A stretch of DNA of 43,113 nucleotides from Aplysia californica. Lineage: Eukaryota. Made by a program: the position numbers and the translations under genes. The stretch covers positions 2,604,655 through 2,647,767 of the forward strand of contig NW_004797273.1 of NCBI RefSeq assembly GCF_000002075.1, written 5' to 3'. Each line of letters starts with the position of its first letter. Within the stretch, counting starts at the first letter, position 1. The notes beneath the pieces were generated by a model that was given only the letters and a program-made list of their open reading frames with translations, searched no databases and had not been told where the DNA came from. This document shows, piece after piece, positions 3,746 to 38,274 of this stretch.

Positions 3746-3849
3746 TGTTAATCTAATCATCACGTTGACAAACTTCCCTTGCACTGTGTTTTGCCATCCT
3801 ACGTTGAGTTTACGGAGTGTTGGAGTAAACCAAGCTTGTGTTAGCCACG

Positions 3850-4911
3850 ATGATATCGCAGTCAAGTGAAGGGATGAGCTGTCTGTCCAAATTCCCGGAA
3901 TCTGGCGTCATAAACGCATATGGTGACAGCGCACTGAGTATACCGAGGACAGATGCACTCTGTGTTGATACGAACGTATTTCTTACTTACTCCAAAAAGA
4001 AAGATGGACAAGACAAACCCAACACTCCTTGTTTCAACGAGTTGTACCAGCCTACAGGAGAAATTTTGGGCCACGGTTCGTTTGGCTCCGTGTGCACATA
4101 CAAGAGGAAGAAAACGGGGATGGAATACGCCGTAAAAATCATCAAGAACTGCGATGATCCTCGCAGACGACCGGCAGTGTTGAGGGAGATCAGAGTTTGC
4201 GGTCGCTTCAAAGGCTGCGAAAATATCATTCAGCTCGTGGAGTTTTTCGAAGAAAAAAATACATTTTACCTAGTGTTTGACAAGGTAGCGGGAGGTACCA
4301 TGGACAAGGTGATTAAATCACAGGCGTTTTTGGACGAGCCTGACGCTTCCCGTGCGATCAGCGCCATTGCCCGCGCTCTGTTGACTCTCCACAGCGCCGG
4401 AGTGGCCCACAGAGACATTAAACACAGCAACATCTTGGTTCATACAAAAGGGGAGGTCACCCCACTCGTTCTGTGTGACTTAGGCTTAGCGAGTGAGCCC
4501 ACTCCTAACGGGGCCAGACCTTCCCTGACGACCGCTGTAGGCTCACCAAAGTTCATGGCACCGGAAGTCGTAGCCGCGATCAGGCAACGTCCCGTGGTAC
4601 CCTACGACCACCGCTGTGACATGTGGAGCCTAGGTGTCCTGCTTTTCTCTATGCTCTACGGCTTCCTGCCTTTTAAAGGCGACTGTGGTAAGCACGTAGG
4701 TGTCTGGCGCCAGCCTTGTCATGACTGCCACCAAATCATTCTACACAAGGTCCTGCACGGACAGTTCAAACTCCCGCCTGGCCCCACGGAGTTGTTGTCA
4801 CGTGACGCAGTGAATTTGGTCCGAGGCCTCCTGGCCGTTGACCCCCGAGACCGCTACTCGGCCTTCGACGTGCTGCAACATCCTTTTGTCACCGCGCATG
4901 CACAAAGGTGA
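3850..4911 (+). CDS. Intronless MAP kinase-interacting (MNK/MKNK-like, CAMK group) Ser/Thr kinase, ~353 aa; probable retrogene or lineage-specific paralog
   Basis: Uninterrupted ORF (track starts at GTG 3838; first ATG 3850; TGA 4909-4911). Kinase motifs LGHGSFG, YAVKII, LREI, HRDIKHSN, DLG and APE. MNK hallmarks: FNELYQPTGEILG, EFFEE..FYLVFDK, YDHRCDMWSLGV, and the Cys insert GDCGKHVGVWRQPCHDCHQ. Confidence 0.93.
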   Translation: MISQSSEGMSCLSKFPESGVINAYGDSALSIPRTDALCVDTNVFLTYSKKKDGQDKPNTPCFNELYQPTGEILGHGSFGSVCTYKRKKTGMEYAVKIIKNCDDPRRRPAVLREIRVCGRFKGCENIIQLVEFFEEKNTFYLVFDKVAGGTMDKVIKSQAFLDEPDASRAISAIARALLTLHSAGVAHRDIKHSNILVHTKGEVTPLVLCDLGLASEPTPNGARPSLTTAVGSPKFMAPEVVAAIRQRPVVPYDHRCDMWSLGVLLFSMLYGFLPFKGDCGKHVGVWRQPCHDCHQIILHKVLHGQFKLPPGPTELLSRDAVNLVRGLLAVDPRDRYSAFDVLQHPFVTAHAQR

Positions 4912-21560: not shown

Positions 21561-23982
21561 CACTGCCCAAGTCAGGAAGACCTACAGTGCAAGATAGATT
21601 TTAACCAGTTTTTAACTTTTACAGAAATAACAGAAATCAGAGAAATTATAAAGATTTTGTTGCCATTAATTTCACGACACACCTGAATAGAATCTACATC
21701 TAGAAAAGAAAAAGAGGGAGACGGGAAGAGATCATTCCTCTAGAAACAACACACACAAACAAGACACAGAGCTGTGAGTAGCACCATAGCATTGATGATA
21801 TCATTTCGTTCTTTCTTCATTCAATCATCCACAGAGCAGACGGAAAGTTTCTGACAGATTGCTACCCCAGGTTAAAAAAATTCCATCTACCATTTCAGTC
21901 AAATGCAGATAGCAATTTTCTACCCTAAGCCCACTAGTTCCCCACTGAATCCTAATTGTGGAGATACAGATATATATCGATCTAAACCAGAATCAATAAG
22001 ATGGAACTCTAGTCTTTCCTGATTTATAAATGATGTAAATCTCCCATATACCTGTAAATTAAAAACAAAACAAAACCAAAACAAAATAAAATTAGGAGAT
22101 AATCTTCAGGCTTCTCAAAATAGCACCCATACATTCGTATTAATTAGGCACATAATTGTTACATTTCAAATTCACCTGTCCCACTGATATCTCAAAACTA
22201 ATAATAGTCCACATTCATTGTTCATTGAAATACATGAGTGTCCACAGAGAGAAGCATCAAAGTTAGACTGTTCACTGTTTGTAGACTTCAAACCGCAGTG
22301 AGTTGCCCTGGAAATAAAAAACATGGAAAGTTCAGAAACATTCAAAAACATATATACCACTACTCTTCCAAAAAAAAGGATAAATGTGAGGCAGCATGGT
22401 GAAATCAGGCACTCCTCAAAATAATCAAAGTAACTCTTTATCTCCAAGGAGGGTAAACCCTCTACACCGGGCCCCTTTTTTGGAGCTAAATCTAAAAATG
22501 AAAAAAAAAACCGTCATTAAATGGGTTATTAAATAGAAACCAGCAAACCTATTTTGATAGTTCTTCATCTAATGAATGAACTTTCGGTATAAGAGACCTG
22601 TTTCCGGCAATCGCCGAAAAGTAAATTGATGTCGAATTCATTGTAAAGGAATGTGCCCAAGCCGCTGTCAGCGGCTCACCGGCACAGTGGTTCCGACCGC
22701 GGGCTGCTGGGAGCGGCTTGCCGGAGAGAAGAAACTGGCAATTTTCCGCAGGTTTATGAATTTTTAGTTTTTTGGCCCAACACCTTTCATGCCCATTAAA
22801 GAACACATTTCAGTGTGGATTTTACTGAAAAACATTGATTAAAGGCACAAGAAATGTAAATTTTCAGTTTCCATGGACTCTCTAGCTAGGGAAATAACTA
22901 ATCTTTGGTGGCCATATTCTCCCTAATTTTATCTCTGAAACCAGATGACCCCCACCTCCTTCTTTGCAAATATCACGACTTGTATTCAAGATAAATTTTT
23001 TTTTTTTCATCCAAAGCAAGACGAATGAACAAGCTATAAGATGATACCAATAACTCTATAAGAACAAAAATTGACGAGAGCCTGATTCCAGTGTCGTGAC
23101 ACAAATGGATCTTTGTTTATTTGTTTTAGTTATTAGTAGAGGTTTTACGCGAATCGCAACTGCATAAGTCAAATGGATCTTGCAGGACCCTTAAACTTAC
23201 ATGAACTTATAAAAAATCTCAAATAAAGAACTACAGTTGGGAACAGATGAATCAAAAAAGTTGAGTATTGAGAAATAACTTCAACACATCCATAATTCGG
23301 GTTAACAAATGATGAAAAGTTAAAGAACTACCAGTCGGGGAATGGCAAACTGTACGAGCTATCCGTGATTTTCAGTTTTTGCAGGTTCATGTTATCTGTG
23401 TTGTCTAACTGTAGGTTGAACAAGAGAAGGATACAATAAACCATCCTAGTTTCTGAATGGGCACAAAGAAGACAAAGCCAGTGACAGATATTTTGTAAGG
23501 ACACGCAAAGGTGTAAAGAACAAAAATCTGTATTGTTGTCTGCCAAAATCGGTGTCCTTTTTTATACACTCCTTTAGTTGCAGCTGATCCATTATACAGA
23601 TGGATTTAAACAGCACAGAGGGTTTGGCACATAGGGTCGCACGTCAAGCAAGGACCAAGTAAGATGCCTGAATGGTGGCAAGAGGGCAATACGAACCGAA
23701 CATGAGTACAATAGTATAGTATTTTGCGAGGTGTGCTAACAAAACAAGTTAATTCTCGCAATCCACAAATGGAGATATTGGCTGAAAAAATACACATCAA
23801 ATTTGTAGATTTCAAACTGATGCCCTTTTCCTCTTTTATAATTTCATATACCGGTAAAAAACTGAAAAACTCATCAACTCACATTTGTTTCAAAGGTGGT
23901 CCTTAAATGTGCCCTAAATCTAAAGTGTTAGTTTTTCTGGCCTTCTATAAGTTATACGGTGAAGCCCACTTAAACCAAACAC

Positions 23983-25450: not shown

Positions 25451-25577
25451 CGTTCCTCGCTTCCTGACGTCCATGCCAAGGGCAGTGGCTGTTTCCAGGA
25501 TGCAGGCGATCTCATTCTCCGTCATCTGGCGCTCTGGGAATGGCATCTCTGTCATGCATGGGTCATTCTTGAACTTC
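25451..25577 (-). CDS. FKBP6: FKBP6-like exon (R3H-like core: KFKNDPCMTEMPFPERQMTENEIACILETATALGMDVRKRGT)
   Basis: Acceptor taacctttcag|, donor ACG|GTAAAG, 127 nt, phase 2/0. Confidence 0.8.
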
Positions 25578-28500
25578 CTGAAAGGTTAAAGGTCACAGTC
25601 AAACTACAATAAGAGGTCACTGTTCTTACTTACTGACCGACTAAATTATATCCAATTAATTATAATATGTTGAATTGGGGTTGCAGCCAATTAGCAAATT
25701 AGAAAGTTTTTTTTCCATTGAAATAAAACTGCTGCCATTTTCAAAAAAATTAACTGAGAGATGAAAGAATAGCGCGACATGAACCTTCACATACAACAGA
25801 TGAGTATATCATGCAACTACCCTGAAAATTCAGTTTCTTGCATCAGGTAAAAATAAATTAGACTGTTGCACCAGGTCTGACACACTTTTCTCAGTAGACA
25901 CTACATCATGGTTAACCCTTCCAGCGAACAGCCGCTTTTGAGCACTCCCAAACCTCAGTCCCAGCCAATACAGCAGTATTTTAAAAAAAGAGGCATGCAT
26001 TCTAAAAAGTAATGTAGTATCTTTATAACAAGGTTTAGATAATAACATATAACAATATCTAAAGGATAATGAACAAATATTATCAAAATTAAAGTTTAAA
26101 TAAAAATAGGCTCGATAATTTAGAAAAATGTGCAAATTCAGTACCCCCCGAAACTGAGAATATATGCTCTTGGGACGGTGGGAGGTACAAGCGCTGCTGA
26201 AAATACACGTGCATGGGGCTGGAAGGGTTACCACAGTCAAATCATACATTGAGGAAATCCTGTATGAGAAGCACTTGGGATGCTCGGACAGGTTGAACGC
26301 TGGCGCTGTATTCTTTATGAGCCCATTGTGGGTAGGTGGAACAGGAAAGGCATAAAATTATTTTGATCTATGACTAAAACAAAATGAGAGAGAGAAAAAA
26401 AAAGTGTGTTGACTATTCTGCTTGCGAAGATTTTAAGTTTTTGAGGAGGGAAGGAGAGATAGAAAGAGAGAGAGATAGATGGAAATATATATATATATAT
26501 ANNNNNNNNNNNNNNNNNNNNNNNNNNNNNNNNNNNNNNNNNNNNNNNNNNNNNNNNNNNNNNNNNNNNNNNNNNNNNNNNNNNNNNNNNNNNNNNNNNN
26601 NNNNNNNNNNNNNNNNNNNNNNNNNNNNNNNNNNNNNNNNNNNNNNNNNNNNNNNNNNNNNNNNNNNNNNNNNNNNNNNNNNNNNNNNNNNNNNNNNNNN
26701 NNNNNNNNNNNNNNNNNNNNNNNNNNNNNNNNNNNNNNNNNNNNNNNNNNNNNNNNNNNNNNNNNNNNNNNNNNNNNNNNNNNNNNNNNNNNNNNNNNNN
26801 NNNNNNNNNNNNNNNNNNNNNNNNNNNNNNNNNNNNNNNNNNNNNNNNNNNNNNNNNNNNNNNNNNNNNNNNNNNNNNNNNNNNNNNNNNNNNNNNNNNN
26901 NNNNNNNNNNNNNNNNNNNNNNNNNNNNNNNNNNNNNNNNNNNNNNNNNNNNNNNNNNNNNNNNNNNNNNNNNNNNNNNNNNNNNNNNNNNNNNNNNNNN
27001 NNNNNNNNNNNNNNNNNNNNNNNNNNNNNNNNNNNNNNNNNNNNNNNNNNNNNNNNNNNNNNNNNNNNNNNNNNNNNNNNNNNNNNNNNNNNNNNNNNNN
27101 NNNNNNNNNNNNNNNNNNNNNNNNNNNNNNNNNNNNNNNNNNNNNNNNNNNNNNNNNNNNNNNNNNNNNNNNNNNNNNNNNNNNNNNNNNNNNNNNNNNN
27201 NNNNNNNNNNNNNNNNNNNNNNNNNNNNNNNNNNNNNNNNNNNNNNNNNNNNNNNNNNNNNNNNNNNNNNNNNNNNNNNNNNNNNNNNNNNNNNNNNNNN
27301 NNNNNNNNNNNNNNNNNNNNNNNNNNNNNNNNNNNNNNNNNNNNNNNNNNNNNNNNNNNNAAGAAGAAGAAGAAGAAGAAGAAGAAGAAGAAGAAGAAGA
27401 AGAAGAAGAAGAAAAAGAAGAAGAAGAAGATTGTCCATGGGGATGAAAAGGAAGGAGAAACAAAAACTCACTCAAACTGTTCTTGTACAAGAGCTCTAAA
27501 ACCATCGGAGCACGGAGGTTGACTCGGCCTCTCCACAGACTCTTCTTTCTCTTTGTCCCCTGAGGTTTCTGTACAGAGAAAGAGATAAAGGGAGACACAT
27601 TTGATAGAAATAGATCTACAGATGAACCTACTCTAACTGCCAACTGTCTATGACAATCACCTTTACATTCAACCACTTCTTATCCCCCTCCCCACACCAT
27701 GCATTAAAAAAGAAAATAAACAAAAAAACTTCTAAAAAATCAAAATTATAATGACATTGTTTGAAATGTCCACCTGTCTAAAACAACCTCTTTTCTCTCT
27801 AAAAATTAGTGGCCATCTTGGATAATTCCGACAGCACTTCAAGTTATAGTAGGTTATACAGTAGTCTCCGCCTAAGATCCCACACTGAGGTGTGAACTTA
27901 CCAACGTATTTGTTTTCCCCAAACATCGCATTCACATCTGAGCTCTCCACCTAAACTTACATCACTCGCTGGGTGGGTAGGGCCCACAAATTCGCTCCAG
28001 GCAGGATCACATCAAACTGAACTCTTCCCTGACCATTGCATCAGTTGTCTCTACACGAATTTGCGAGACAGACTTGTTATTGGAGTGGTCACAATGTAAT
28101 GGAGAATAACGGCAAAGGTGGGGGAAATCGGTCAGAGACGGAGTTATAAATTTTGGACAGGGAAAGGGGAGGGGCAACTGGATAAGCGTAGATCCTTGAG
28201 ACTCACGAAAGGACAAAAAGTGTAAATGGCATGTCTCATGCCACCGTGATTGGTCATCAAGGTAGACCACTCCTTGCTCGCCATATGTCACAAACCCATC
28301 CAGGGGTCAGGTCAGTTCATTTTAGAGTGGGGAGAGACCATTTTACTGGTAGTGGGCCTTAACATAGATCACTGAAGATTCTTCCTTTGGTGTATCGACT
28401 AAGATCTCCTTTCTGATTATCAAAACATTACAACAGTTCTAAACAATTAAACAACGAAAAAGAAAGTCAAATATATCAGAACTATGCAAAAAAATTATTT

Positions 28501-28707
28501 GAAACACTGGGCAACATGAGTTAAATTCTCACATTCTGGACTGTAAAATGAGGACTAAATCACCTACCCCCTGCATCACTGGCTGGCTGAGAGAACATCT
28601 TACGGTAAAGACTCTTTTCAAATGACGTGTGCTCTTTGATAGACCTGTTATAAGAAATTTCACGAGGTCAAATAATTTTTTATACAGTAATAGCAATAAT
28701 AATAACA

Positions 28708-31700: not shown

Positions 31701-34700
31701 TGTATACATATCCATTGGCACAAAGAAATAGAGAGAGAATACAAGTCATATTATGACACTGTTGGGTCCTTACCAACAAAAATACATCTCTTCTAAGTCT
31801 GAGAATTAGACTGGGACAAAACTGAAATGTATGAACAGTCTGAATTTGGCAGCTTTGAAAACAACATTGCAATAAAAGCAGCCAGACATGTGAAAGTTTT
31901 CAAAAAATGTTTCGAACCCATTTGAACTACAGATGAGTAACTTTAAAAGACTAACCACTGAAATTGGTAAAGTCTGCAGTCGCTGGGTACATTTCTAGAA
32001 AATTGTACTTTGCATGGTTTAAAAAAAAATTATGATGTCTTATCTCATTAGGAGTTGTGCCCATTTTACTATGGATTCAGCATGTTGAGGGCAACTTTTG
32101 CAACACAACTGTAGGGTTTAAGAGGTTAAAAATACAATGACAATTATATTGTGATTTGAACATAGAAAAAGCTGATACCAGATCTGGATCTAACAAGCTC
32201 TCCCTCAAACCACCCTCTGCCAGCCTTATTATACTGCAAAAACCCGTCATCACTCACTTGGCTAGATCTTTCAACGCGTTATTGATCAACATATCACTGG
32301 GCTTGAGATTCCGAGCTGTGCGCAAACTCTGCTTGGCATCCTCAAAGCTGCCCAAGGAATGTAAGGCCTGGAAATGGAAAATGAAGCAGCTAAATTAAAT
32401 GCAATTGAGCACAGACGACATAAACATGGAAAACTCTCATCGCTTATAGCTCTTAAAATTTTCCATTCCCCAACTGATACTGATATGTCTTAATTAATTT
32501 TTCGTTATCGGTTAACCCGATTTACGGATGTGTCATACGTATTTTGTCGATCCTTGATATTAATCTGTGCCCGACTGTATCAACATTTTAATCTTAAGTC
32601 GCATATCTGTATATCTGCGATGAAGTACCAATTCAATTTTTAAAAATAGAAATAAAGACAAAGAAACTACAATTAATGTGTGACAACAAAACCAGCTCAA
32701 AAAGATCAAATATTGCCGCTCAGAGAGAAATGGGGAGGATATGGGATTTAAACTACCGCAACTACTGTAGCAGAATAACAGAAGAGACAAAACTCATTTG
32801 CTAGAAAAACAAAATTAGAAAAGCGAACTCAAAGAGCCAACACAGTCACCTACCAGCTCGCACCCCTCCTATCTCATCCAAACATCTCCATGAAACCAAA
32901 GAGACAGCTTATCACTTTAATATATACATACCAAAATTATGCTACCAGAGCCTGACCTGGACATTAAGTAAAACTCAGGAAAGCAAAATCACTGCATGTG
33001 AAATGAAATGTCTTTGCAAAACCCTTAACATCACAAGACTAGACAGGCAGAGAAATGAAGATGTAAGAGAAGCCATTGGCACTGAGTCCTGCCTGCATTA
33101 AATAGAAAGACAGAATAAAATGGTTTGGCCACCTGTTACATATGTCACCTAGCCAGCCAGCCTCAGGAGTCTATAACACCAAGCATTCAGGTTCAGGGAT
33201 GCCACTCAACTTTTTTTAAATAGCTGAAAATCCACGCGCCACGGTTTGCTAACATATGAATATCAATTTGAAACCCAAAGAATGTACATTTTTTTTCTAA
33301 CTATAGCACAGCGGGTAAAATACCGTCCAGACCGCTCACTTAGTTTTCCTTCCCCGGTTCCCCCTCGACCATCCTCACCACCCTGCCCGCCCCGCCCGAC
33401 AGCCCAGCGCGTAGTCATAAATCACTTGTCAGAGGGGTTAATTGGGGTGACTGCAGCGCCACTCCTCCTGTGCCGGGGCAGTAGTAAATATGGCGTTTTA
33501 GTGCGAACTGAAAGCCTCCTAACTCTGAAACTATAAATGCTACAAGGCCGATTGAGATTTCATTGTAACGTGCTATGTTTGACCTGTAGGCCGGTATAAC
33601 TTGTTTTCTTGTAAGTCCGATTATATCAGTTTTACAAGGGATTTAAGTAAGTCTGTGATTTTCAAATTGGCATCTTCAATGTTTAGAACTTTTTCAGTTT
33701 GGATTTAGATATTTCAATCCGGCCCCCAACGATTTAAACAGAAATTCATGTATCAACTGTGGTGACAATTTTCATTTACATGTGCAAGTTTCAAATGCAC
33801 GAAGTTATTCTATGATTTTCTGTGATTTTTAAAAAATACCAACCCACCACTCTGAACATTCATCCTTGCTGTTTTTAGTTTTCTTGCCTCTACTACATCT
33901 GAATTTCGTTGTCATTTTTAACAATATTGTTGTCATGGAGTGCCACACTCAACATGATCATATGGTGGGCATTGTGCTCAAACATCATCGCCTTCTTGAG
34001 GAGGCCGCACATGATATAGATGTACAGCTGGTCCATCAATCTATGGAGAATTGCACGCCTGGAATAGGACAAAATGTGCATATCTACGGCAAAAAATGAA
34101 AGAGGGCTGGACAAAAACGAGGAGGACATTCAATTGTTACAGGGCTGTCAGATTTTGTCGGATAATCCACGAGAAGCAGACAGATTTGAGAGGAAGGGTT
34201 CTAGTGTACATGATCAGCTGTCAGAGTTAGAGTTTGAGGAGCTTATTCCAAGGTCAAGTCCTGCCTGCTCTGAATTTGATAACATCCTCAAACAACACAA
34301 CATCACACCACAGGCCTACCACAGCCGTTCATTTATAGGAAGCCACTGCCATAAATACATCACAGCCCATGTGTACAGACAGCTAGCATCATTTTTAGCA
34401 AAAGGAACAGTTGCATGTACACGAAATCAAAGCATAATAGACACCGCATTAATTGTTCTGAGAGAGAAATTTGTTCATGTAAAAGACACCTTCAAAGATA
34501 TCCACACAGTAATTGCACATGGAAAGCCAATCACTTTAGAGAGAATACCACATATTCAGTCATGCATCACACGATATATGTCTTTATACAGAAACATATT
34601 TGGCAAATAAAAGGTCTTGAGTTGATAGTGCCGTAAAACACGTGCTACTCAATCAAAATCGATCAAAAGAAAAGGTCATCCCCAAACAACACATCCCTGA

Positions 34701-37700
34701 CAAACACTGCGTTCCTTGGATACAAAAATGTGGGTTTGGAATGGCCTTCCATTGTGAGCAAGGGGGTGATCTCATTCATGCAACCGTGGCCTAACAGACA
34801 AAGAAAAACACGTCAAAACAATCATGCAGTCACAACACGTCCAAACCCACCCTGAGCTACTCTGTCGTGTGCACCACCAATCAAAAGATGAAAGCTTACA
34901 GCGGAAAAATGAGATAATTCCTCCAGTCCAGCAATATTGTGTTCTTTTTGTATTTTGTGTTTAGGTTGTGTTTTCATAAGTGTATCGGCAAGAAAGATCT
35001 GTCCTGTAGTTACATGTATCGTGGATATCGCTATGAAAAAACAAGGTCGCAAAGCAAGAGTATTGCAAAAATCAACTTCAAACCTGAATAATTACGGATC
35101 CAGAAACTTCGTGCATATGCCCCTTTGTCAGTACAAATTTCATTATGTTCTCAGTCCTGTGTGCAAATTTGATTGAATTCGTCGGGGGCAATCATATTTA
35201 AATCGATGTTTATAATTGATTACCCATGACACATTTATCAAATTAAGTCCCCTTTTTGAGGACTTCACAGCTTTTAAGTGTAAAGTACCATGTTCTTCCG
35301 ATTTCTTCATTTTCTTCCTTAATATGTTGAATATTTACGTGGTCTTTATTAAAATATTCATCTTACATTAGCTTTGGCTCACTGTGCTGGTAAACTTTGC
35401 AAAAAATACAAGAGCGCTGCCGGTGTTCGGCTGATTAGGGAAATCCCCGGCGGCGCAGGTAAATGACCCCGTGACCTGGGGAAGAGCGGGCTTGCTTGCC
35501 TCGCGCCAGCCGAAACTAAATGGGCGCTCTATAACCGCTGTGATAGATTCTATCTCGATCAATAACGGAATAGTGGATCAGGATCAAAATACCGGATAAA
35601 AGCGGAAAAGTGGCATCCCTGCAGGCTATAAAGGAAGAGGAAGGCCACAAAAAAGGTGGATTGAAAGTGTCAAGGAAACCCTGAGCAATCATAATATCCC
35701 AACTGAAAGAACTGCTGAGTTGGCCTTCCATAGAAAACTGCATCTCCCCTTGATGCTCAACGGCAACAGAAGAAGAAAAAAGTAAAAGTAAAGTAAGTAA
35801 AAAACTCATTTTGGAAGGATGAAAGAACAAGTACCGGATACAGTAGTGAGTTATGGAATGTCAAAAAAAACCCATGTCCATTTTCTTTTTGAGGACACAC
35901 TTACATCAGTATGTTCAATTTAAAAAAAAGAGAAATAAAGAAAAGGAAACTACTGTACACCTACCTTGCCCTTGAAGTAATGTGCCTTCACAGCGTTGCG
36001 GTCCAGCCTCAGGGCATTGTTGCAGTAGGAGATGACGCGGCCAAACTGCTTGAGGTAGTTGGAGCAGGTGGCACAGTTCAGGTACACCCTCAGGCTTTGC
36101 TTGGTCCACTGCGTCTGTTCCTCCTCATTCTTCAGATTGTATCTCTGGAGCACTTCTTCTGCCTGCAATAAGTGATGCACCAGCAATATCAGTCTCACAT
36201 CTAGATGCTCATTGGTCAAATTTATGATTGGATCAGGTAAGACATGCAACAATATTAGTCTCATATCTAGAAACAGTTGTCCTTTAGTCAAATTCAGGAT
36301 TGGATAGAGTAAGTGATGCAACAATAGCAGTCTCAGATCAACCAACAGGAGCCCGCTGGTCAAATTCATGATTGGATTATTGTGGGTTGGGTCGAGTAAT
36401 AGTGTTGGCCACTGCACATTGTATCAAATAAGACTTCAGCTTTGCTTCATCAAATTTGACCCAGCAGCCAATGAACGATACTCTCATATCCAACTTGTTC
36501 ACCAACTTGCTTCAAGACAACCTCTCATTTTCAGAAGGAGTTGAAGTTTGCTGCTTCACCTACAGTTGCTGGGAAGTTTATATATTTGCTCCGTGCTATT
36601 TACCGATGATTGCGCAGCCCGCTTTAACAATCGTATAATTGTGCAGCAATCTTAAGATTGCCGCAGCAATCTTAAGATTGCGACCCGCCTTTTAACAATC
36701 GTATAATTGCGCTGCAATCTGAAAATTGCGTTAATATTTTATATTTTTAGAATAATTATTTTAAAAAATTCATTCCGTCTTTATTCTTTTACTCACATCA
36801 AGGAACATTCACATATATTTTCCAAAGTGGAAAAATATGAAAATTAAAATTAAAATAAACATCAGAAACTGAAGAGCTCACAAGAATGATACAATGCCAG
36901 GCTCAAAGTTCCCAGAGTACATTTAGTTTATTTTATATTTTTTAAATAATAAAAAAAAAAAAAATTCACTTCCATCTTTTTATTTTTTACTCACATCAAG
37001 GAACATTCACATATATATATATCGATTTTCCAAAGTGTAAAAATATGAAAATAAAAAATTAAAATTAATGTATGAAACAAGTGTAAAAATATGAAAATCA
37101 AAACTAAAATCAAAATTAACATATGAAACTGAAGAGCTAACAAGAATGATACAATTATACGATCCTTAAAATGCACATCACAATCATCAGATTCTGCGCA
37201 AATATACAATCGACCGATCGCTAAAACCCGCAGCGCAATCTTGCACCCATCGGTAAATAGCGCGGAACATATTCACTAGTCGCAGGACTATGTCAAACTT
37301 ACTTTTAGTAGAGGTTTTACGGCTCTCGCAACTGCATATGAGCGCCAAGGGGTGGATGTCAACAGAGAAGTCTTTACAGGAAAACAGGCTTACTCTGCTC
37401 ACCTCTCTAGTTTCAACAGCACAAAGTCTGCTTCAACTATCAAGGCACCCCGGAAATAGCGGGTCACAAGAGTGTGGCAAACATACAAAAGAAGTAGAGG
37501 AAAATGACGATAGTAAGGATTAGGAAAGAAAAAGCAGCAGTTCCCTGTTGTAGTTCAGGCACAGTTATGAGCATGACATTGTTGGATCAGCCCATTTACA
37601 ATTCTACAGTGCATTAGAACGAGAAATGTCCCCCCCTTTGGGAATAGCCTAAAGACACTTCAGTCAGTGGCACCACTCCGGGGGGGTTATGTCAAACTAA

Positions 37701-38274
37701 AATCTGAAGCAACTGTTCAACTCTGAAAGGAAAACTGTCTATCGATAATATAAATCCACCAAATTATGTTTTAAATCTTTCAATTCAATTTTTTAAAATT
37801 AAAAATATCTCGAGGTAGCTGACAGACATCAAATGTGAATTTAAAAGAAGACAAAACAAGGACCACAGCCTATCATTATGAGAAACATCAGCATAAACAT
37901 CACAATCACAAGCATCAACAGAACAGTGATTATACAACACCCATTAAAGGGAGGGGGGGGGGGTGTAATCACTTTTCAGAATAATCTAGATATCCATCTT
38001 GACATGATAAGAAATACGTGTAAAAATCTTGTTGCAAGCGCAGTTACAAAAGTACATGAATAAACACGTCTCCTATCTATTAGTGTGAGCAAAAAGATTT
38101 TGAACCAACCCATCTTCTCTGTAATAGCCTAAGTAAATAAAAAGAATATGCTTTTATACTCGCTATACCAGCTAATCCACAACACAGAGCGGACAACAGC
38201 ACCAGCATGCCTACCTTTCTGTATTTACCAAGAGCTCTGTGATATTCACGCTTCTCAAAGTACTCTTTTCCCTC
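25451..38274 (-). CDS. FKBP6: Partial FKBP6/Shutdown-like TPR co-chaperone (TPR1-3, capping helix, linker, R3H-like tail); join(38215-38274,35965-36162,32258-32367,28568-28644,27472-27568,25451-25577); 5' FKBP-domain exons and last exon not resolved
   Basis: Six GT-AG exons with consistent phases (0,0,2,1,2). Three TPRs followed by the large-FKBP motif EKSLYRKMF. The 198-nt and 110-nt exons and junctions K|A, GK|A and LA-K resemble my recollection of vertebrate FKBP6 exons 6-7 (needs verification). The PPIase domain is not seen in the window. Confidence 0.8.
27472..27568 (-). CDS. FKBP6: FKBP6-like exon (acidic linker plus helix: TSGDKEKEESVERPSQPPCSDGFRALVQEQF)
   Basis: Acceptor ctctttctctgtacag|, donor GA|GTGAGT, 97 nt, phase 1/2. 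Confidence 0.8.
28568..28644 (-). CDS. FKBP6: FKBP6-like exon (SIKEHTSFEKSLYRKMFSQPASDAG)
   Basis: Acceptor tttcttataacag|, donor G|GTAGGT, 77 nt, phase 2/1; EKxxYxKMF motif. Confidence 0.88.
31060..31449 (-). mobile_element. Retroposon family A, full-length
   Basis: Colinear with 37300-37687 from tail to the GGGGGGT end; TSD not clear. Confidence 0.85.
31555..31683 (-). mobile_element. Degenerate tRNA-derived SINE (family of 8680-8857)
   Basis: GACCTGAGTTTGATTCC B-box-like motif; GCTGGGATG...TAAATGATC. Confidence 0.55.
31913..32129. mobile_element. Possible piggyBac-type MITE
   Basis: AACCCATTTGAACTACAG vs reverse complement TTAACCTCTTAAACCCTACAG; TTAA is intact only on the right. Confidence 0.35.
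32258..32367 (-). CDS. FKBP6: FKBP6-like exon (TPR3b: ALHSLGSFEDAKQSLRTARNLKPSDMLINNALKDLA)
   Basis: Acceptor ttttccatttccag|, donor AA|GTGAGT, 110 nt. Absent from the ORF track; found by reading the minus strand. Confidence 0.88.
33194..35621. mobile_element. hAT-type non-autonomous element
   Basis: 13-bp perfect TIR CAGGGATGCCACT; flanks CAGGTT / CAGGCT (6-bp TSD, 1 mismatch). Confidence 0.8.
33240..35386 (+). mobile_element. Chapaev-type (CMC superfamily) DNA transposon, internally deleted; transposase remnant ~33955-34800
   Basis: HMVGIVLKHHRLLE, ITPQAYHSRSFIGSHCHKY, IPKQHI..HCVPWIQKCGFGMAFHCEQGGDLIH. Putative ends CACGGTT and CACAGTG (reverse complement); no TSD seen, so the ends are tentative. 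Confidence 0.75.
35965..36162 (-). CDS. FKBP6: FKBP6-like exon (TPR2-TPR3a)
   Basis: Acceptor ttattgcag|, donor AAG|GTAGGT, 198 nt; LRVYLNCATC...CNNALRLDRNAVKAHYFKGK. Confidence 0.9.
36168..36378. repeat. Three diverged ~70-bp tandem units abutting the FKBP6-like exon acceptor
   Basis: Recurrent GTCAAATT(C/T)A(T/G)GATTGGAT and AGTCTCA(C/T/G)ATC motifs with a 69-72 nt period. Confidence 0.8.
36587..37269. mobile_element. Ginger-like MITE
   Basis: TIR TG(C/T)TCCG(T/C)GCTATTTACCGATG, TG...CA termini, 4-bp TSD TATT; internal palindromes GCAATCTTAAGATTGC and an internal direct duplication with ~200-bp period. Confidence 0.75.
37300..37687 (-). mobile_element. Retroposon family A, full-length
   Basis: Perfect 11-bp TSD TATGTCAAACT (37289-37299, 37688-37698); I/Nimb-type tail. 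Confidence 0.92.
38215..38274 (-). CDS. FKBP6: FKBP6-like exon (TPR1: EGKEYFEKREYHRALGKYRK)
   Basis: Acceptor ttcttttttcctcag|, donor AAG|GTAGGC, 60 nt, phase 0/0. Confidence 0.85.

Follow-up and report, generated by a model that had tools for sequence, protein, structure and literature searches.

It has been previously reported that piRNA biogenesis and fertility both require the Shutdown/FKBP6 family, which PMC3463805, PMC5870485 and PMC4331008 describe in terms of PPIase and TPR domains. Drosophila Shutdown (Shu), an FKBP6 ortholog of 455 aa (PMC12014135) with its clamp lysine at Lys304 (PMC3463805), is likewise described in published main texts as a PPIase domain plus TPRs, with an acidic N-terminus. 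In the main-text accounts, Shu binds Piwi and Armitage (Armi) and bridges them in a complex in which Hsp83 was undetected (bioRxiv 2024.11.13.623522), also binds BoYb in S2 cells (PMC12014135), and, when its TPR clamp is mutated, leaves flies sterile with Piwi localisation largely spared (PMC3463805). Furthermore, fly Shu is reported to act in both the primary and the secondary pathway of piRNA production, whereas mouse Fkbp6 acts in secondary biogenesis only (PMC3683924). These accounts offer no structural explanation for either the Hsp83-free binding of Piwi and Armitage or this difference between the fly and mouse pathways.

R3H domains (PF01424), known from SMUBP-2/IGHMBP2, SPAG7, PARN and KhpB, sit in their canonical form on a helicase, nuclease or KH domain. 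In KhpB the motif arginine, the motif histidine and a second arginine are described as contacting RNA, as in SMUBP-2 with dGMP, and an R/H double mutant of KhpB is impaired in RNA binding (main text of PMC12408800). R3H-like folds have also been recognised by structure inside other proteins, as insertions within the RNA enzymes Xrn1 and PUS7; that of Xrn1 is reported to bind RNA, and that of PUS7 was placed on tRNA by docking (main texts of PMC9684461 and PMC8599909). Here we describe an FKBP6 gene of the sea hare Aplysia californica whose product carries, on a chaperone scaffold, a C-terminal tail that matches R3H domains in predicted fold, length and structural residues.

The window analysed, a stretch of 43,113 nucleotides, contains seven exons of this gene on its minus strand. 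Aplysia FKBP6 is 481 aa long (RefSeq protein P0001, named inactive PPIase FKBP6); the TPR exon used as a query returned one protein, P0001, at 100% identity, and the seven exons translate without a stop into P0001 residues 248-481. Residues 1-247, which include an N-terminal motif and the FKBP domain, are encoded on the same strand past the window end (G000:C3:2647807-2657228). The six exons between 38274 and 25451 are bounded by AG/GT and agree in phase. The exon at 38215..38274 encodes part of TPR1 (aa 248-267; exon ends, phases and RefSeq match), and that at 35965..36162 runs from TPR1 to TPR3 (aa 268-333) and carries the clamp residues N296 and K326 (RefSeq match and contig). TPR3 and the start of the capping helix (aa 334-370) follow at 32258..32367. 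The remainder of the capping helix, with a KMF-type motif (aa 370-396), lies at 28568..28644; an unconserved linker, predicted to be disordered (aa 392-411), and helix 1 of the putative R3H-like domain are encoded at 27472..27568 (aa 396-428). The core of that domain is encoded at 25451..25577 (aa 428-470), comprising the end of helix 1, strand 1, helix 2 and strand 2, an assignment that draws on alignment as well as on contigs. These last three exons have AG/GT borders, matching phases and support from spliced contigs.

Exon 25577-25451 closes at a GT donor, and the FKBP6 protein therefore extends further. The initial annotation, whose quoted peptides all lie on the minus strand where it had placed them and whose two phase-consistent exons behind the TPRs have the expected AG/GT ends and phases, had ended the protein at ...KRGT. 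That end was wrong: a seventh exon at 22272..22307 follows in phase 0, contributing 11 codons (aa 471-481) plus TGA, with the 3' UTR after it, as seen from the RefSeq match and contigs. It supplies strand 3 of the domain. Its acceptor at 22307 is one of 31 phase-0 candidates below 25451 and opens a short strand-like peptide before the stop; other candidates (e.g. 22051 and 14996) were excluded as the last exon by the RefSeq model and the spliced contigs.

The two junctions that had been proposed for the tail, 28568>27568 and 27472>25577, were each found joined within one contig in 4/4 runs from 4 studies; the RNA status of these runs is guessed only ('RNA?'), and the joints remove GT-AG introns exactly. 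Among the loose ends listed, contigs of runs X12 and X11 carry on from 25450 into exon 22307-22272, and an X12 contig passes from 28644 into the TPR3 exon. In addition, one 1813-base X12 contig contains both the TPR exon and the last exon with 411 bases between them, which is the sum of the four intervening exons. Two raw poly(A) runs gave almost zero cover of these exons and are silent either way on expression. An origin of the tail exons in faulty prediction or in another gene is already refuted by the spliced contigs in all four runs, and the RefSeq model and orthologs in many phyla also speak against it; we give this explanation practically no weight.

Three other features of the window lie outside the FKBP6 exons. 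An intronless Ser/Thr kinase frame at 3829-4908 on the plus strand (Pkinase E 8e-60), which looks MNK-like to us, belongs to an expanded family: it has 18 near-full-length single-frame matches in the genome including itself, the others 47-61% identical, and one of these relatives sits about 6 kb upstream. A young repeat of ~2.2 kb (about 33307-35542) lies inside an FKBP6 intron and is covered by contigs of the runs guessed to be RNA; its part at 33700-35500 has 32 near-full-length matches including itself, at 92-100% identity. An exon-like frame of 75 codons at 14996-14772 on the minus strand, behind a strong acceptor and outside FKBP6, has no Pfam match and is single copy except for a flanking simple repeat.

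Pfam recognised in P0001 an FKBP_C domain (residues 122-210, E 1e-18) and TPR matches, that is, one FKBP-type domain followed by three TPRs, which form a helical array in the full-length model. When a tree was built from the FKBP-TPR core (39 rows, midpoint root; the unrelated protein P0278, found in the cluster of the fragment P0167, was excluded), P0001 fell within a 31-row clade together with five fish FKBP6 proteins, with support of 100/100 and apart from FKBP4-like rows. Together with the RefSeq name and the single strong FKBP6 locus in the genome, this bears out the FKBP6 identity proposed initially. By alignment, the Hsp90 clamp is partly kept in Aplysia FKBP6: N296 is retained in 63/64 rows and K326 in 60/64, while the TPR1 lysine position is N246 and the TPR3 arginine is F330 (these clamp positions were assigned from FKBP4-like rows and what we take to be the general TPR pattern). 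Since this arginine is present in just 22/64 invertebrate FKBP6 rows, many of these proteins may bind Hsp90 weakly. At the PPIase site, the Trp of FKBP4-like rows is Leu in Aplysia FKBP6, and the source name itself says 'inactive'. A germline role in PIWI loading would be assigned to the Aplysia protein by analogy with its orthologs only.

For the tail, which is 66 residues long, an alpha-beta-alpha-beta-beta fold is predicted (mean pLDDT 84 for the tail modelled alone). The same fold appears within the full-length model (helix 417-432, strand 438-440, helix 448-460, strands 464-468 and 475-479), in which the linker 392-411 has low confidence and the pTM is 0.48. When the tail model was compared with 48,161 chains, four of the top five matches were titled R3H: 2cpm (Z 9.7, rmsd 2.7, 67 aligned), 2lrr (Z 8.6, rmsd 2.5, 63 aligned), 1whr (Z 8.2, rmsd 1.4, 62 aligned) and 1ug8 (Z 7.9, rmsd 2.5, 68 aligned). 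The other, 7zw0 chain sh (Z 8.9), presumably holds an R3H domain as well. Foldseek placed 7zw0_sh, 1msz, 2cpm and 2lrr in this order at probability 1.00, with ranks 2-4 titled R3H and TM values of 0.69-0.79; with the tail model it gave no match at E <= 0.001. Atlas's own model also matches R3H parts, and 4/10 of its rows pass the bar for the R3H name; an arthropod TPR cluster whose aligned part has no family is also among the rows, and the Atlas search by features gave no usable match. Thus the tail is predicted to have an R3H fold, as had been suspected from the sequence, and the domain is complete only with the last exon.

Profile searches reached the same family. A profile of 19 tails searched against the PDB found the R3H domain of SMUBP-2 (1msz, E 0.0026) as its best natural match, and in a further comparison it found an R3H helicase at an HH probability of 94%. 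The top row of the PDB search, the designed repeat protein 8v2d, was set aside as the sum of six weak stretches, none significant alone. In Pfam, 3/19 tails matched PF01424 weakly (best E 0.0031); P0001, its tail and the single exons had no R3H match, lying under the gathering score, and a single-sequence PDB search with P0001 showed FKBP and TPR matches only among the best 60 of 236. A profile search of 1.84 billion representatives found 214 proteins at E <= 0.001, of which the best 150 were listed; when 73 of the 146 new proteins were run through Pfam (E 1e-4), R3H was called in 7, none of them FKBP-bearing. Of 263 proteins, the tail profile could align 201, made up of 97 linked to an FKBP6 core or TPRs, 49 with RxxxH, and 55 unassigned, mostly short fragments, which were excluded from every count. 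The canonical R3H proteins reached by the tail profile indicate homology and more than resemblance; the tail, on these profile matches, is therefore an R3H homolog rather than a mere look-alike, which bears out the pattern fit first noticed by eye. In a tree built on few columns and half of the rows, the tails lay on one side of a branch from canonical R3H (95/88). This branch allows a single origin of the FKBP6 tails but does not prove it. Some 20 short fragments in the database align solely to profile positions 15-18 to 53-65, which is the stretch encoded by exon 25577-25451; they hint that both introns of the domain are common to distant species, and none of them could be linked to FKBP6.

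The residues that contact nucleotides in canonical R3H domains have largely disappeared from the FKBP6 tails. In Aplysia, I451 and L455 of helix 2 occupy the Arg and His sites of RxxxH, and L474 the site of the second arginine. The loss of RxxxH, already read from this one sequence, proved to be general: among the 97 FKBP6-linked tails the histidine is found in 0/97 and the arginine in 9/97 (amphioxus and sea cucumber rows). All three contacts are missing from 69 of 74 non-redundant tails; five keep one contact and none keeps two. We compared these tails with 43 canonical R3H domains, a set in which R and H are fixed by the selection of its members. The second arginine occurs in 41/43 canonical domains and is outside the four commonest residues in FKBP6 tails, and a Ser and a Gly invariant in 43/43 canonical domains vary among the tails. 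Hydrophobic residues occupy the R site in 59/74 tails and position 465 in 66/74, compared to 0/43 for canonical domains; in bees and ants the R site is acidic. F430, E438, P442, E450, A458, G462 and K480 are common to both groups. Beyond the two hydrophobic positions (the R site and 465), the tails showed no invariant surface patch specific to FKBP6. Taken together, the FKBP6 tail is best described as a pseudo-R3H domain, in which the predicted fold is that of R3H and the defining RxxxH motif is gone; in this, and in lying below the Pfam cut-off, it differs from canonical domains.

One alternative, which the initial annotation had proposed beside protein contact, is that RNA binding persists in the tail (a piRNA precursor, held by its 5' end or backbone, would be one example), through a non-canonical surface or only in combination with the TPRs or PIWI. 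Its ancestors bind single-stranded nucleic acid, with the SMUBP-2 R3H placed at 5' ends (by the title of a reference in PMC12408800), the R3H-like motif of yeast Xrn1 is described as RNA-binding (PMC9684461), and the job of FKBP6 is small-RNA loading. Furthermore, the H site is basic in 20/74 tails and a lysine of the last strand is invariant. Against these points stand the absence of all three contacts from nearly all tails, a ligand-face net basic count of 0.3 in tails compared to 4.0 in canonical domains (face columns were hand-picked and the canonical R and H are fixed by how the set was chosen), and a domain net charge of -0.7 compared to +1.6. We regard continued RNA binding as unlikely.

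The pseudo-R3H tail is widely distributed in animals. We found it in a sponge (Corticium) and a cnidarian (Hydractinia), in arthropods (Centruroides, Athalia, Hylaeus, Petrolisthes and Homarus), in the annelid Owenia as well as Tubulanus, Lingula, gastropods, bivalves and cephalopods, and in Ptychodera, four echinoderm genera, the amphioxus Branchiostoma and the tunicate Styela. In two whole-protein searches, which share two rows, the tail was present in 23/33 and 20/22 FKBP6-type rows and in 0/29 and 0/20 of the other FKBP/TPR rows. The twelve FKBP6-type rows without it comprise five jawed fishes, five records that end before the end of the capping helix, P0242, which ends at the capping helix, and P0027, which has a shorter end with no tail match. 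The fish proteins share the FKBP domain, the three TPRs and the capping helix with Aplysia FKBP6, but end 3-8 residues past the capping-helix match (tail absent in 5/5), in agreement with the expectation that vertebrate FKBP6 stops soon after the KMF-type motif; mammalian FKBP6 is likewise short-ended. The protein set is rich in molluscs and consists of animals, its vertebrates being these five jawed fishes. In terms of identity, conservation of the tail is close to that of the TPRs: measured against the 8 closest relatives it scores 0.63, compared to 0.58 for the TPRs and 0.13 for the linker, and over 64 proteins the values are 0.27, 0.32 and 0.09.

The ancestral animal protein was therefore likely FKBP-TPR-pseudo-R3H, with the domain later lost in vertebrates; we infer a gain before the split of sponges from other animals and a loss between invertebrate chordates and jawed fishes. 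The initial annotation had viewed the tail as an extension of FKBP6, and it is indeed an extra domain; the idea of a lineage-specific addition does not hold, as the domain is likely ancestral in animals. A functionless vestige, retained because truncation is slightly harmful, would account for the missing binding residues and for the loss of the domain from jawed vertebrates, perhaps also from P0027 and P0242. Its retention from sponge to tunicate, at an identity like that of the TPRs and far above the linker's, across three exons, argues against this, and we consider it very improbable.

Of the 42 rows from the search for fly or moth Shutdown, none was a named FKBP6 from Diptera or Lepidoptera. 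From the published length and Lys304, 151 residues lie behind the clamp lysine in fly Shu, compared to 155 behind K326 in Aplysia, and on this count fly Shu likely bears the tail. An insect-clade record (P0241, 447 aa) has a fly-like K-x-x-x-Q clamp and a weak match to the tail profile (E 1e-4). The difference between the fly and mouse pathways would fit the likely presence of the tail in the one and its absence in the other, with two data points.

We judge it somewhat more probable than an even chance that the pseudo-R3H domain, held on a tether, provides a docking site for a partner protein in the piRNA pathway. A single fusion of an R3H domain to FKBP6 would have preceded the divergence of sponges from other animals; its nucleotide pocket would have decayed early, with hydrophobic residues taking up part of it, and the linker of ~20 residues, predicted to be flexible, would let the folded module reach out from the TPR scaffold. 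There it could bind PIWI that is still unloaded, or a factor of piRNA biogenesis such as Armitage/MOV10L1 or a TDRD12-type protein, and so supply the Hsp90-independent arm of Shutdown function, a module that vertebrates would then have lost. A folded, tethered, non-basic module with a hydrophobic former pocket is a natural candidate for Hsp90-independent contacts. On the other side, most conserved positions of the tail are common to canonical R3H domains, the R site is acidic in bees and ants, the hydrophobic residues could be buried, and vertebrate FKBP6 works without a tail, with P0027 and P0242 also lacking a tail match. We are doubtful of the more specific proposal that the domain docks on Armitage/MOV10L1 or unloaded PIWI and thereby licenses primary loading in invertebrates, its loss explaining why mouse Fkbp6 is secondary-only.

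Invertebrate FKBP6 proteins also share a conserved motif at the other end of the protein. In P0001 it spans residues 12-36 (G000:C3:2657106-2657228, past the window end), with 0.64 identity to the 8 closest relatives, and it falls in the region whose deletion alters self-association of fly Shu.

The tail might instead fold back on the TPRs, the FKBP domain or this N-terminal motif, tuning stability, self-association or Hsp90 access. The N-terminal motif (~aa 12-36) is missing from the same 5/5 fish proteins that lack the tail, the Hsp90 clamp of Aplysia is partly changed, and fly Shu without its first 77 residues is reported to self-associate and to bind Armi harder (bioRxiv 2024.11.13.623522). 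However, the main text of that study attributes the N-terminal effect to charge, by means of substitution mutants, and the low-confidence linker and the pTM of our full-length model predict no fixed domain arrangement. We consider folding back rather improbable, and protein docking remains our preferred reading.

No published description of an R3H-like domain on FKBP6 or Shutdown was found in the literature covered, by titles and the opening lines of abstracts and in mostly open-access main texts, and the term 'R3H' is absent from the main text of the papers searched for it. An R3H-like fold may already be annotated for some entries in structure-based databases. What is new here is a third, separately folded domain (as predicted) on a known family. 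An overlooked domain that is probably as old as animals and was probably lost in vertebrates bears on the question of how Shutdown binds its partners independently of Hsp90, and the FKBP6 tails would represent a family-wide case of an RNA-binding fold outliving its binding site.
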